From Eledone cirrhosa (taxonomy: Eukaryota), in NCBI GenBank assembly GCA_964016885.1, contig OZ024745.1:71920001-71984000 (forward strand): DNA of 64,000 bases, written 5' to 3'. This document shows, piece after piece, positions 1,662 through 63,745 of this stretch. Within the stretch, counting starts at the first letter, position 1. Every line of letters begins with the position of its first letter. The position numbers were made by a program, and so were the translations under genes. The notes below the pieces were generated by a model. That model saw nothing but the letters and a program-made list of their open reading frames with translations, was not told the origin of the DNA and did no database searches.

Positions 1662-2222
1662 TCATATATATAGCCCGGTCATATCTCTTTCTTTAAACTA
1701 TTCCAAACAGTATTTCTAATGAAATCCTTTGTATTTTAATTAATTAGTGAAGAGTTTGAGAAGGATTTACTAAAATCATAATTTCATTAATATGATATTT
1801 GTAACATAACAAAATATTCTCATAAAATTATGCTAGAAAATTTTAAGTAGGAATCCTTCCCTTGATCCTCCGGAACATCCGATATCTGTGACCTGCTACT
1901 TTCTTTATCGACCCCAAAAAGACGAAAGTCAAAGGGGAACTCAGATTTGAACTAAGTGACCGGGAATATATATATATATGAGAGTATTGAAGTTTGCTTG
2001 AAGCATTGTGGAATAATAAGATTTTTTATTTGGGGGGGGGGGGGTCGTTTTGGAAGCCTCAACAATGCAGATGGGTAAATCTCCGGGTAACAGAATCCGG
2101 GGATGAAGAGAGAGATGTAAGGGAATGTAGAGTGGTTGACGCTTGAGAGAAAAGAGTACTCAATACCGAATTAGAGTTTTAATATTCATTTTATAAAAGC
2201 TGATGCCCTAGGGACCGCATAT

Positions 2223-2760
2223 ATATATATATATCAGAGATTGAATTGTCTATGTCTAATATATCCTTTTTTATGGAATTTTGTAGTGAAATGTGATTTG
2301 AGGATAGGGTAGGTGTTATTTCGAGCAGGTCAAGTTAGTTTGATAAGTTGTTTATATATATATATATATATATATATATATATATATATATATATATATA
2401 TATATAAAACGAAGGAAATGTGGTAAGGAACCAGGTTGACCATAACGCACCAAAGTACTCAATACTTAGGGTAGTAGAGTGGGTTATAGGAAAGAGTAGG
2501 ACCCCGACGGTTGAGCTCAAGCCGTTTCTGAGTCCAGAATTAGCCGTCGAGACGGCTTGAGCTCAGCCGTCGGGGTCCTACTCTTTCCTATATCTATATA
2601 TATATATATATATATACATATATATATATATATATATAAACAACTTATCAAACTAACTTGACCTGCTCGAAATAACACCTACCCTATCTTCAAATCACAT
2701 TTCACCACAAAATTCCATAAAAAAGGTTATATTAGACATAGACAATTCAATCTCTGATAT
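2223..2760. repeat. Inverted repeat (~2225-2352 vs ~2637-2760) enclosing (TA)n and a nested hairpin element
   Basis: ATCAGAGATTGAATTGTC...GTTTGATAAGTTGTT is mirrored by AACAACTTATCAAAC...GACAATTCAATCTCTGAT. Confidence 0.9.
2408..2592 (-). mobile_element. Fold-back (half-hammerhead) short element, copy 1
   Basis: Long terminal hairpin GGACCCCGACGG...CCGTCGGGGTCC and a TATTGAGTAC tail; bounded by (TA)n; homologous to 8808, 57455, 8405, 14050 and 43630. Confidence 0.8.
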
Positions 2761-3844
2761 ATATATATAATCGGAATGATTACAGTTCTAACCACTTTTG
2801 TCATAGGAATGTAGAATCAGGGCTAAGTCTGAGGTTAAATAGCAACACAAAATCAACAATAGCAGTAACGACATAACAACCTTCCGTCATATCAATCATA
2901 AATTATTCAAAGAATGAATAACTCTCTCCACATTTGACTTCTGTTTAGAGAGGCTTTACTTACAAAGCTAATCTTTTTGAGTGAGAAAGATAAAAAAAAA
3001 AAGATTGAAAAGAAAAACATAGACACAATAACTCTAGCTTTTACCTAATGCCGACAAATTTATGATTGATTGAAAAACAAAATGGTCATTATGTCGTGAA
3101 TTTGTATTATCTAGTTCGGTTTGCTTTTAGATTTTATTGTTTTTGTTTTAACTATGTATTTTTAACTATCTATCTTCTCTGTCAGTTCATTCTTCAAAAT
3201 CTTCACGTTCTCTAGCCATTCATTCCACCCTTCATATTTTATTACATTCGTAATAATATTTTCAGTCTTCTCTTCCATCATTTCTATTTTTTCTGTCTTT
3301 ATCTTCTAGCAGCACATCTCTTTTTCTCATTTACAGCTACGTCGTTTTCACTAACTCTTTAGCATTCTCTCTTCTACTATACTTGTCCTAATTTAGCCTC
3401 ACATCCTCTCCCCATATCTTCGCACTTTTGCATCCTCGCGCCTTTAAGTTTGTTAAGCGGTTAAAAAATTGGAGCTCAGGTCACTCTGACACTATAAAAC
3501 AACCATAAAAAGAACATTAAAAAAGAAAATTTCGATAACAAGGTACGCATGCGTATGAACGAGGAGACTGCATCTGTGTGAATAGCCAGATCATATCATA
3601 ATGCGTCCTGTTAAAAAGGTTTAGCTACGAGTCAGAAGACAGTTATACAAGTGAATTACTGTCTACTAACTATTATAGCCAACAGTATGAATGAAGTACG
3701 AGTAAAAGTGTCAGATCCGAAGGATAAAAATGCTATCATATACAGATCTTATCGAAGTTTTACAGGGTTTAGATAATTTTAGCTTAAGCCATTAAAAATG
3801 TACTAACATTAACTGATGTTTTGTTTTATATTATTAGTATATAA

Positions 3845-4008
3845 TGTCGGACGCCATGCTTTGACGCATAGAGTTACGGCCCTTGCCATTCTGAGTTCAA
3901 ATCCCGCCGAGGTTAACTTTGCCTTTCATCCTTACGGGGTCGATAAAATAAACTACCAGTAATACACTGGGTAATTGCTGGCCTTGTGCCAACAGTAGAA
4001 ACAATTAT
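3845..4008 (+). mobile_element. tRNA-derived SINE family A (5'-truncated)
   Basis: B box GAGTTCAAATCC, then CCGAGGTTAACTTTGCCTTTCATCC...GGGTCGATAAAAT, as in many other copies in the window. Confidence 0.8.
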
Positions 4009-5088
4009 TAGTATATAATGTATTTGTATCTATAGCACATATACATATTTGTGTTTCTTTCTGTGCATGTGTGTGTTTCTATCTATTCATGAGTGTGTTA
4101 CTCCATCTACTTCTCACCCCCCCCTTTCTTTCTCTCTCTCTCTCTCTCTCTCTCTCTCTCTCTCTCTCTCTCTCTCTCTCTCTCCCTCTCTCACTCCCCC
4201 TCTCTCTCTTGCTCTCTCTGTGCTTGTGTGTTTACCAAGTATAACAGACAATGTGAACGAGAAAAATAGAAAGCCAAATGGGAATCGAGAACAAAACACT
4301 GATTTTATTAACGTTTGTGGTGAGGTGTTGTCTAGTGTTTCTCTGAAACAGTCTACCGATTGAGCTAGATTTCTCATCGAACCACACTTGTTTTATCGCC
4401 TTCCGATACTCTCGACAGACGTGCCATCGAGTATAGAACGTAAGTAGGACCACATGTTATTCACACCAGCTTCTGAGGTGGGGTGAATGCTTTAGAAGCT
4501 TTCAGTTTGACAACTAGAGAGTGATGGAAATCCTTACTCTCGTGTGAGCAAAAATGTTCCCTGCTCTTGAGTATCATAGAAGTCAAACGTGGTCACACAT
4601 TTTCAGGCATGTAAGCACACACATTCACGTTTAAATATGCACAAGATATCCCTATATATATACACCTACATATATACACATAAATTTATATACGAATGAA
4701 AGTTCGAATCATGTAAAATTTCAGTATTTTAAATTGCATTTACCTTAAATATAATGCATAGGGTGAAGATATATATCTACTTAAGGATTTTTCTCGCCAT
4801 CATCTGTAAGACGTACGATGAGATTGGCCACATGATAGAATATTTTTAATGCACAATATATTTGGTTTCTTTCTGATATTGTAAAACCTCACCAGTATCA
4901 ATAGACTTCCACGGCGAAGGAAAGTAACGTTGTTTTATTTTCTTTCTCATGTACACAAATTTGAAAATAATTATCTTTGATTTTGATTCAATGTTGATAA
5001 TAATAATAATAATATATATATATATTGTTATATTTGGGGATGGTCATGTTACCAATACTGCCAATATATATATATATATATATATATA

Positions 5089-5288
5089 AGACCTGGGCAA
5101 CATCTAAAAACCCAAACGGGGAGTACCATGAAAAATAGTGTCCCAAAACGAGGAGAAATGAAGCAAAATGAAATGGGGAGATTTTACATAATGAAAGTTA
5201 TACCCATTTTCACAAGAGAAGACATCTCTCACCCACCCCAAAATGGGAGGGAGATCTCCCCGTCGAACGAGGAGAGTTGACAAGTCTG
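5089..5288 (-). mobile_element. MITE-like element (CAGACYTG..CAAC termini)
   Basis: Imperfect TIRs; homologous to 40536-40685 and 46703-46854. Confidence 0.7.
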
Positions 5289-61595: not shown

Positions 61596-61781
61596 CGGTG
61601 GATTGGCAGTATCGGTAGAGGGTCGGACGCCATGCTTCCCAGCATAGTTACGTCCCTTTACGATCTGAGTTCAAATCCCGCCGAGGTTGACTTTGCCTTT
61701 CATACTTACGGGGTCGATAAAATAAAGTACCAGTAATGCACTGATTAATTGCTGGCCTTGTGCCTAAAGTAGAAACAGTTA
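61596..61781 (+). mobile_element. SINE family A, full length
   Basis: A and B boxes plus conserved body; degenerate copies also at 60590-60975. Confidence 0.85.
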
Positions 61782-62376
61782 TTTAATAATATTGCATTAT
61801 ATCTTGTAACGATTGTATGATTTACTATTGCAATAAAGAAAATAATTTCATTGTTTTCTAAAATTTTGTGTCACTATTTCGTCGTTTTTTTCTTCTAAAT
61901 AATACTTCTCTAAAAAAATAAAATTTCTTCTGCTAACATTATCTCTTCTTTCCGCCGTTTGATCTTTCTTTCTATCTTTCTACTTTATTTCTTTCTGTCT
62001 TTGTTCCTTTCTTTTGTTCCTCTCTCTCGTTATTCCTTTTACTGCCTCTGTCTCTACTGTTCTCTCTGCCCACCTCCATAGACACACTTATAGATGTCAA
62101 CTTTTTCCGTGAGAAATATCTATTTACATATGTTATTGCGAGAAAATTAGTTTCAAGTGTTCACAAAGACGTTTCACCCCCCCCCCCTATATGCATACAC
62201 TCAATCTCTCTCACACACACCACACACACACACATACACAAACACATGTATGTGTGTATGAATGTATGTATTATGTATGAATATATATATAATATGTATG
62301 CATATATATATATAAATATATATATATATATATATATATATATATATATATATATATATATATATATGGGGCGTGA

Positions 62377-62589
62377 AGGCGTGTGGCTGAGTGGTTAGAG
62401 AATTGGATTCGCAATCGTAAGGTTGTGAGTTCGATTCCTGGACCAGGCGATGCGTTATGTCCTTGGGCAAGACACTTTATTTCACGTTGCTCCTTCTACC
62501 TGGAGTTGCGATCGATAGATAGTATTAGCAATTGGAAAGACCAACGGAAACATTGTTCCCTCGGTCCGATTTGACGAAAGTCGATCGTT
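62377..62589 (+). mobile_element. SINE family B
   Basis: Near-identical to 42920-43131. Confidence 0.85.
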
Positions 62590-62834
62590 GAGAGAGATAT
62601 ATATATACACACATTATATTACATTATATTATGTATATATATATATATACACATTATATTATATTATGTATATATATATATATACACATTATATTATATT
62701 ATATATATATATATATTGTATATATATATTATATTATACTATGTATATATATATATTATATTATATTATGTATATATATATATATATATACATTATATTA
62801 TATTATATTATGTATATGTATATATATATATATA

Positions 62835-63598
62835 CGAGGTGTGTCAGAAAAGTTCCAGTACTGATGTCACAAAAGATTTATTTCAAACTCAAACTTCACA
62901 CTAAACGTTTTCTCCTTCAAAGTAATCCCCCCTGGAGTATGTAACTGTAATCTTAGATCTCTGCAGCGATCAAACTTTTTTCTTCATAATTTTATATACA
63001 TGTCCTCTCTTTTAGGCCGTCAAGCAATGAGCAATGAGCAACGAACAAACTTGAAAACTCCGTCAGAAGCACTGGGATTGCCGCAGCAAGTGTATGGAGA
63101 TGAGACGATGTCACGCTCACGTGTTTTTGAGTGGTGCAAGAGGTTTAAAGAAGGACGCGAGGACGTGGAAGATGACCCCAGGAGCGGAGCGGAAGGCCCT
63201 CAACCACCAGGACTGAGGTCAACGTTGAGCGCGTCAGGCAGATGGTGCGTAGCGATCGTCAGCTGACTGTTCGACTGATGGCATATGAACTGGGCATGAA
63301 TCGGGACAGCGTCTGGAAGATTCTCACTCAAGATTTGGACATGCGGAAAGTCTGCGCGAAGATGGTGCCAGAACTGCTGAACGATGACAAGAAGGGTCGA
63401 CGCATGCAAGTGTGCCAGGACATCCTCGAGCGTCTTGAAACCGAACCAGACTTTCTAGGGACAGTCATCACCGGTGATGAGTCATGGATCTTCGAGTACG
63501 ACTCGGAGGGGACCCGTTTTGATGACATCAAAAAGGCCGTGACGACGGAACTGCGGAGGATCCCGGAAGAATCCTTCCAGGATTGCATGCAAGGGAGT
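62835..63598 (+). mobile_element. Internally deleted mariner transposon
   Basis: TA|CGAGGTGTGTCAGAAAAGTTCC TIR; HTH, KVCAKMVP and VITGDESWIFEYDSE fused directly to C-terminal GTRFDDIKKAV (central catalytic region deleted). Confidence 0.9.
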
Positions 63599-63745
63599 GT
63601 AACTTGAAGTTACTGTAGATTCACCCGAGTGAGCACTCGATGTTTAGGTTCACTTCAGTGTCGAGATGTAGAGCTATACAGAGTGTATTATAATTAAATA
63701 AGATAACAATAACGATTGGTTACTCCTTCATTACGTTTATTGGTT

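Follow-up and report, generated by a model that had tools for sequence, protein, structure and literature searches.

We find that a small bulged hairpin, RCUC-[helix]-loop-[helix']-UH-GAGY-RC-U, recurs in a 64,000-nucleotide stretch of the genome of the octopod Eledone cirrhosa (contig OZ024745.1, positions 71,920,001 to 71,984,000; hereafter the window), generally downstream of type I hammerhead ribozymes (HHRs), and that the ends of the insertions carrying it bracket the hairpin. The families that bear it appear to be pseudo-LTR (pLTR) remnants of (TA)n-targeting Penelope-like elements (PLEs) of the Hydra clade, a clade of HHR-bearing elements that insert into (TA)n (Craig et al. 2021, PMC8557442). 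The original prediction for this DNA had proposed that a structured cis signal is conserved in the interval from the HHR to the terminal (TA)n, and this proposal is supported by covariation of an inner helix, by conservation in Hydra-clade loci from other animals and by the geometry of insertion ends. The hairpin is a real and apparently undescribed RNA motif, of a kind (the retroelement cis signal) that is already known. We consider it reasonably likely that it is a docking site on RNA for the element protein, one that sets internal starts of the reverse transcriptase (RT).

The lower helix of the hairpin comprises four near-invariant base pairs, RCUC/GAGY, with ACTC pairing to GAGT in the window copies. 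A 2-nt bulge on the 3' side (UH) precedes GAGY, and the upper, inner helix, which covaries freely, stacks directly on the lower one; the RCU that follows GAGY is single-stranded, and loops range from 3 to 49 nt. The ACTC/GAGT pairing had been described in the original prediction, which overlooked the bulge and the covarying inner helix. The window copies are as follows.

2455..2480, minus strand: bulged hairpin of fold-back family G; inner helix TACT/AGTA, TT bulge; long arm reaching (TA)n 48 nt downstream
8484..8509, plus strand: bulged hairpin of a family G relative; TC bulge
8855..8880, minus strand: bulged hairpin of family G; (TA)n 46 nt downstream
43679..43704, plus strand: bulged hairpin of family G; HHR deleted
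57576..57601, plus strand: bulged hairpin of family G; reads of other copies exit to (TA)n after 57570, 5 nt upstream
14180..14205, plus strand: decayed hairpin of family G
22446..22507, plus strand: long-loop hairpin, CGTA/TACG; 114 nt past the HHR cut, (TA)n 73 nt downstream
51266..51292, plus strand: hairpin with an inner helix of 1 bp; decayed HHR upstream, (TA)n 51 nt downstream
57007..57028, minus strand: hairpin, CAA/TTG; 69 nt past the HHR cut
57763..57785, minus strand: hairpin with a 1-bp inner helix followed by a bulge; 74 nt past the HHR cut
58219..58239, minus strand: hairpin, TGC/GTA; 40 nt past the HHR cut
59731..59751, plus strand: hairpin of the same family as 58219; single mismatch in the 3' strand
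63633..63684, minus strand: long-loop hairpin, TGT/ACA; about 110 nt past an HHR with a long stem II; abuts a mariner remnant, no (TA)n
20730..20771, minus strand: hairpin whose inner helix has 7 bp; only half of the HHR left after a deletion; (TA)n 51 nt downstream
19434..19463, plus strand: newly found hairpin with a 6-bp inner helix, in a 5'-truncated element that has a (TA)n run on each side
16309..16379, plus strand: newly found long-loop variant, CAAAA/TTTTG, ending in GAGTCA; downstream of an HHR at 16146
43497..43519, plus strand: variant GCTC/GAGT (a G-U intermediate) with a TA bulge and inner pair 1 mismatched; U3-A8 HHR core at 43420 upstream
44259..44300, plus strand: decayed hairpin, unscored by scripts; 110 nt past the HHR cut at 44183
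2156..2177, minus strand: hairpin matching the consensus, context unconfirmed; no HHR or nearby (TA)n

The octamer TYGAGTRC occurs 17 times in the window against 4.84 ± 2.09 in shuffled sequence (none of 100 shuffles had as many), and the linked form ACTC-N5-35-TYGAGTRC gives 14 matches at 13 sites where 0.34 are expected. The window is AT-rich animal sequence with many (TA)n runs. All 14 exact positions given in the original prediction are present, with plus-strand coordinates one base too high, and it lacked four copies (19456+, 16372+, 43512+ and 14198+, the last decayed). The upstream ACTC that it described is found in the linked form at 13 sites and is absent at 14430. It gave a spacing of roughly 35-115 nt from the HHR cut; where the HHR is complete, 40-114 nt were measured. 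Read by eye, the HHR it had placed upstream of 16 sites is complete at seven (22501, 57007, 57763, 58219, 63633, 44294 and 59745), half present at five (51286, 20730, 2455, 8503 and 57595) and not recognisable at four (8855, 43698, 2156 and 14430). The terminal (TA)n follows 41-76 nt downstream at 12 of the 15 window sites that match our descriptor; at 2156 and 63633, and also at 16372, there is none within 100 nt downstream. Several HHRs read by eye had been missed by the HHR scanners, and the scanner-based counts for the window are thus partial. The motif was defined post hoc from this same window, which counts against these figures, and the held-out tests below therefore carry more weight.

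Three exact matches were set aside. The one at 14430 has no upstream ACTC and is probably due to chance, the true site of the element to which it was assigned being 14180..14205; 25202 and 63492, not listed in the original prediction, lie inside apparent mariner transposase remnants and were treated as chance. These mariner-like remnants span 24677-25400 and 62834-63612.

For the held-out test, 20 Hydra-clade loci were fetched by protein similarity alone; a word-indexed search with a Hydra fragment gave nothing, and a full scan succeeded. The pattern was widened to RCTC/GAGY after the Hydra consensi had been read, and its bulge was tightened from TN to T[ACT] after an interim Hydra-locus result had been seen. 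This descriptor has 18 matches in the 103 kb of Hydra loci against 0.45 expected, one of them without context and probably a chance match. Other PLE loci (128) yield two matches in 708 kb where 2.9 are expected; this control comprised 132 loci reached through relatives of the Neptune-type remnant described below, with four from Hydra-rich assemblies dropped, and the loci were not assigned to clades singly. None of 22 HHR-like sites in non-Hydra loci carries the motif, which is therefore not a general feature of HHR-bearing PLEs. The carrier families had also been called unrelated. They are indeed unalignable outside the motif (between-family flank alignments reach a best score of 46, median 24), and the best reading is that they have diverged within a single PLE clade.

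This clade assignment is further supported by protein marks and by published consensi. The Hydra-clade marks of the open reading frame (ORF), namely DKT, the CxCX5C linker, CxxC and CxH without CCHH, are found in the homologue set and in the external loci, and two coding remnants of the window match the Hydra-clade protein profile:

6551..7180, plus strand: Hydra-clade PLE ORF remnant, an N-terminal piece of the RT and the thumb region; broken, without an untranslated region (UTR)
23090..23365, plus strand: C-terminus of a Hydra-clade endonuclease; profile match

Copies of the hairpin joined to a Hydra ORF were seen only in external loci, for example L146, L162-L166, L173 and L178. Among six published Hydra consensi (PMC8557442), examined by eye in the available sequences, it is clear in three as GCTC/GAGC: coral Hydra-2, sea cucumber Hydra-2 and sea cucumber Hydra-1, the last with two copies before the start codon. 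It is degenerate in the copepod consensus and weak in that of coral Hydra-1, and the Octopus bimaculoides consensus has a long-loop variant at most. A covariance model built from 15 seed rows, 10 of them from Hydra loci, led to nine further sites in assembly G012, of which seven have (TA)n 29-37 nt downstream and six an HHR core or 3' half upstream; two low-scoring matches in assembly G011 have neither (TA)n nor HHR, and the best match in 27 control loci has E=0.32.

G011, G012, G015 and other bacterial GTDB records contain many animal PLEs, which is host DNA contamination; G012 alone has 59 matches to the Hydra-clade profile, the weaker of which are other PLE clades. Viral contigs hold no relative of the Neptune-type or Hydra-clade protein sets, and the closest named relatives of a retroelement remnant of the window are Argonauta and Octopus. 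Neptune was rejected as a carrier: the Neptune-type remnant of the window, at 10386-11467, sits in (CA)n and lacks the motif, and the loci of its relatives are unenriched. Octamer matches in the available Naiad and Chlamys consensi were likewise rejected, the first places inspected by eye being mostly coding-looking and without a hairpin.

Covariation was measured on sites chosen by sequence and position only, from the window and the Hydra loci, and clustered by their flanks. The set holds 34 sites in 21 families, two sites without a 5' partner being excluded; it retains two antisense picks and two wrong partners, and the permutation ignores relatedness. Inner pairs 1 to 4 are Watson-Crick in 17, 12, 13 and 10 of the 21 families, compared with 9.0, 6.6, 6.2 and 6.6 after permutation (p = 0.0001, 0.009, 0.001 and 0.08). 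The register with a 2-nt bulge pairs 48 of 63 cells, and alternative registers pair 15-32. The outer pair, for which covariation had originally been claimed, is Watson-Crick in seven families against 8.2 permuted (p=0.82); it is also unpaired in 7 of 15 rows of a structural alignment, and was discarded as a covarying pair. This alignment, whose 15 rows were chosen with structure as a guide, contains 19 two-sided changes against 7.7 expected; plain MAFFT misaligned the variable loops. Viral contigs served as a null, two pattern scans there having given background only: an inner helix of at least 3 bp is formed in 8 of 149 viral sequence-only matches, compared with 7 of 11 window sites and 12 of 15 Hydra sites. 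Within family G, sequencing reads show variants at 1 of 19 core positions and at 31 of 109 others (p=0.022), and the variable sites outside the core include the loop and the bulge pyrimidine.

The ends of the insertions were traced from HHRs, blind to the motif, in the Hydra loci and in the window. In the Hydra loci, 17 of 30 HHRs meet a simple repeat 28-59 nt past the cut, without the motif (three look like another family), and all six with the repeat further off (103-118 nt) carry it; three of the seven HHRs without a repeat also have it. The same scanner found nine HHRs in the window, three with short ends, three with long ends and the exact motif, two with long ends that were unscored (a G-U variant and a decayed copy) and one variant without a repeat. 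Long arms and other ribozymes of the window include the following.

22332..22389, plus strand: type I HHR; cut after 22385
57076..57140, minus strand: type I HHR, long arm; cut after 57084; inverted short arm (HHR 57301+) reaching (TA)n at 57398
57837..57899, minus strand: type I HHR, long arm; cut after 57845; inverted short arm (58035+) ending at about 58131
58261..58311, minus strand: type I HHR, long arm; cut after 58267; inverted short arm (58755+) ending at 58803
63745..63832, minus strand: type I HHR with a long stem II, read by eye; upstream of the 63633 hairpin

When 28 short arms were matched by hand to a homologue that bears the motif, the repeat run of every one began 2-17 nt upstream of where the hairpin stands, in most cases at a TA stretch internal to the element; long arms terminate 31-76 nt downstream of the hairpin. 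Reads from other copies of family G tell the same of its short end: 3398, 3096 and 3086 reads in three runs of restriction site-associated DNA sequencing (RAD-seq) from one study leave into (TA)n after 57570, 5 nt before the hairpin, as do 148 contigs of a fourth run. This is the largest loose end among those listed, alongside 570 smaller ones, and stacks of RAD-seq reads are not independent copies.

Full elements carry two tandem hairpins between the HHR and the start codon. At all three ORF starts that were found, a hairpin ends about 8-20 nt before the reading frame, and two of the three have two hairpins. In both families that could be checked (L164; L162/L173 compared with L166), the long end lies 4-8 nt before hairpin 2. 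With short ends before hairpin 1 and long ends before hairpin 2, a single rule covers both, each end falling at AU-rich sequence immediately 5' to a hairpin. These elements have two alternative 3' ends, and one of the two is often on an inverted arm.

These observations are consistent with the following scheme. The RT-endonuclease protein would bind the hairpin on the element RNA and its endonuclease would nick a (TA)n target, whose freed 3' end could anneal to AU-rich RNA immediately 5' to a hairpin. From this annealed site, inside the RNA, copying by the RT would then begin, with a start before hairpin 1 giving short ends and one before hairpin 2 giving long ends. Two hairpins and two start sites would make the optional 'tail' of PLEs equivalent to one hairpin unit. 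If both target strands were used, the products would be head-to-head palindromes having a short arm and a long arm, such as fill the window, and most of its copies would be ORF-less leftovers of such insertions. The scheme draws support from analogy with the Poseidon element PAc, in which the tail is defined by two internal sites of RT initiation, RNA 3' of the starts is required and both target strands are extended (PMC11167929). It predicts that shifting the hairpin shifts the end.

Could the signal act on DNA instead? A hairpin in single-stranded cDNA, or a duplex site, might direct the GIY-YIG nick in the adjoining TA-rich stretch, or the hairpin might halt second-strand synthesis after the cDNA folds back; the short ends would then be cut or stop sites and not RT starts. 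The site upstream of the hairpin is TA-rich, like the target, and the palindromes of family G centre on stem II of the HHR, as would be expected from the self-priming proposed in PMC3846280. A Drosophila virilis endonuclease is cited as needing tail DNA (PMC11167929), and the tail has been attributed to endonuclease resolution (PMC8557442). A 5' boundary of L164, too, meets (TA)n at the hairpin, and cleavage of DNA would account for this equally well. A duplex site, however, needs no covarying inner helix with loops of 3-49 nt, the tail ends of PAc coincide with in vitro RT starts (PMC11167929), and the few wobble pairs weakly favour the sense strand. We regard a DNA-level signal as rather unlikely, though it is the main rival to docking on RNA. 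That the hairpin pair is a regulator in the 5' UTR, acting on translation, autoregulation, RNA stability or an HHR folding switch, with ends clustering where AU-rich stretches prime on (TA)n, seems to us improbable. The proximity of hairpins to the three reading frames and the TA microhomology at every upstream site are in its favour, yet AU-rich stretches occur throughout the UTRs while the ends stay 2-17 nt from the hairpin, and family G, ORF-less and high in copy number, conserves the core. A combination of chance matches with a neutral remnant of common descent is hardly credible. The motif is short, was defined post hoc and folds weakly, and chance probably accounts for 3 of the 17 exact matches, but the roughly 40-fold held-out enrichment, the absence from control PLE loci, the compensatory changes and the end geometry largely refute it.

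Several further observations weigh against an RNA docking site, or limit how far it can be taken. The hairpin is thermodynamically weak (z from -1.7 to +0.8 in 15 folds) and is the lowest-energy fold in only 7 of 12 isolated window copies. G-U pairs outnumber A-C by four to one in 88 cells, too few to separate action of RNA from that of DNA. The A-U to G-C switch between the window (ACTC/GAGT) and other Hydra loci (GCTC/GAGC) tracks lineage and amounts to about one evolutionary event. All 18 Hydra-locus matches come from two host-contaminated assemblies (G011 and G012), with families repeated, and 3 of the 28 hand-picked arm pairs align poorly. All scored motif-bearing copies of the window are without an ORF, and no octopod ACTC/GAGT copy was found joined to a Hydra ORF; the 3' UTR of the endonuclease remnant at 23090..23365 has a U3-A8 HHR at 23783, TATAT-ACTC and (TA)n, and no complete hairpin was scored there, 23783-23915 being ambiguous. 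The HHR elements of the window at 56257, 50145/50050 and 46157/45716 are without the consensus motif, and the U3-A8 HHR families at 45082 and at 9 kb and 51 kb have a divergent hairpin with similar end geometry.

Related elements provide additional observations. The U3-A8 HHR core variant (TTGANAA), reported in Schistosoma PLEs (PMC4209133), occurs at 23783, 43420, 45082, 45167 and 21312, with eight pattern matches against 1.9 expected. The U3-A8 families at 44935-45269, 21250-21345, 9015-9250 and 51364-51557 contain an ACTY-GTG hairpin whose 3' strand diverges and which may be a variant of the motif; their short arms, too, stop 5-11 nt ahead of it. The palindromes of family G (2485-2592, 57458-57567, 14068-14154 and 8891-8969) are centred on HHR stem II, so that the inverted arm stands in place of the ribozyme's CUGANGA half; this symmetry suggests fold-back self-priming or annealing at the stem II hairpin. 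ACTC/GAGT is also stem III of the HHR in several Hydra elements (PMC8557442, File S2), the same four pairs as the lower helix in the octopod. Among Neptune-like loci, L001:120-200, L008:905-985 and L011:370-465 have another conserved hairpin between the HHR and the start codon, in which CTTG and CCGG arms pair with CCGG and CAAG (three sequences, weakly aligned); it is possibly that clade's counterpart of the Hydra hairpin.

Other features of the window include the 5'-truncated Neptune-type RT/GIY-YIG remnant in (CA)n at 9393-12015 (10386-11467, minus strand), on either side of which about 350 bp of adjacent DNA are present as an inverted duplication. A partial tandem at 55936-56555, with a minimal HHR at 56257, has a different hairpin about 95 nt past the cut, just before the (TA)n end, and no RCTC/GAGY. 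More long palindromes lie at 49823-50365, 52943-53269 and 39754-39837, and in the first of these both arms contain a minimal HHR, with an 8-bp pairing that has no bulge, TTAACTCA/TGAGTTAA, downstream. A dispersed repeat of about 160 bp is present in more than 10 copies (for example 3846-4010, 22606-22710, 61119-61302 and 61604-61783).

How PLEs choose their RNA and where copying starts has been studied in vitro for one element, whose binding motif is only bracketed. The hairpin offers a candidate of 20-30 nt backed by covariation and found in an octopod, a bivalve-associated assembly, a coral and a sea cucumber. It provides an explanation of the optional tail, an annotation marker for ORF-less Hydra remnants and a point of comparison for RNA recognition by telomerase. 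More speculatively, the tandem bulged hairpins may be a clade-wide device of Hydra-clade RTs for selecting the template and measuring the start site, with the protein, a dimer by analogy with the PAc model, docking on each hairpin and priming a few bases upstream from both strands of the (TA)n nick; we hold this bolder proposal to be possible. If true, it would explain the PLE tail and the head-to-head palindromes together, would be the first sequence-defined, cross-phylum RNA recognition element in the sister group of telomerase, and would supply a portable signal for (TA)n-targeted insertion.

In hepadnavirus epsilon and other bulged stem-loops that recruit an RT, a lower stem, a bulge and an upper stem form a likely docking site for the RT that fixes the start of DNA synthesis, a layout that the hairpin shares. 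The larger bulge of epsilon differs in that it templates protein priming, and no homology is claimed. In Rfam 15 no family reached its gathering score: the 150 matches examined of the 151 for the window all fall below it, mostly (TA)n against miRNA models, and the three matches in six Hydra loci are all sub-threshold. No description of the hairpin was found in Rfam or in the PLE and retrozyme literature covered, a body from which subscription journals, Repbase notes and the PAc figures are largely missing. Non-LTR retrozymes (PMC7229834; 10.64898/2026.07.22.740005) resemble the window copies as short, ORF-less, PLE-derived repeats with a type I HHR. They differ in forming head-to-tail tandem units, and their available descriptions mention no such hairpin, whereas the window copies are mostly single or head-to-head and bounded by (TA)n; self-comparison and a tandem scan of the window revealed no head-to-tail arrays of the motif-bearing families. 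Hydra-clade PLEs share with the window copies the (TA)n target, a type I HHR in the 3' UTR or pLTR and inverted 5' copies; their published account covers protein motifs and HHRs, and the accessible text has no 'hairpin' in its supplement and no 'stem-loop' in its main part (PMC8557442). The tail of PAc (Frangieh et al. 2024, PMC11167929; Arkhipova et al. 2013, PMC3846280) is alike in having two alternative 3' ends downstream of the HHR, one often on an inverted arm, an RT start inside the RNA and required RNA 3' of the starts. PAc, which has an AC-rich stem-loop, belongs to the Poseidon clade, and its tail measures 30-40 nt and lies inside the ORF, with no conserved cross-family motif described in the accessible parts of these papers. 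The tail of the window and Hydra elements, in contrast, is located in the 5' UTR, is about 60-140 nt long and starts with a covarying hairpin shared across phyla and present in two tandem copies.

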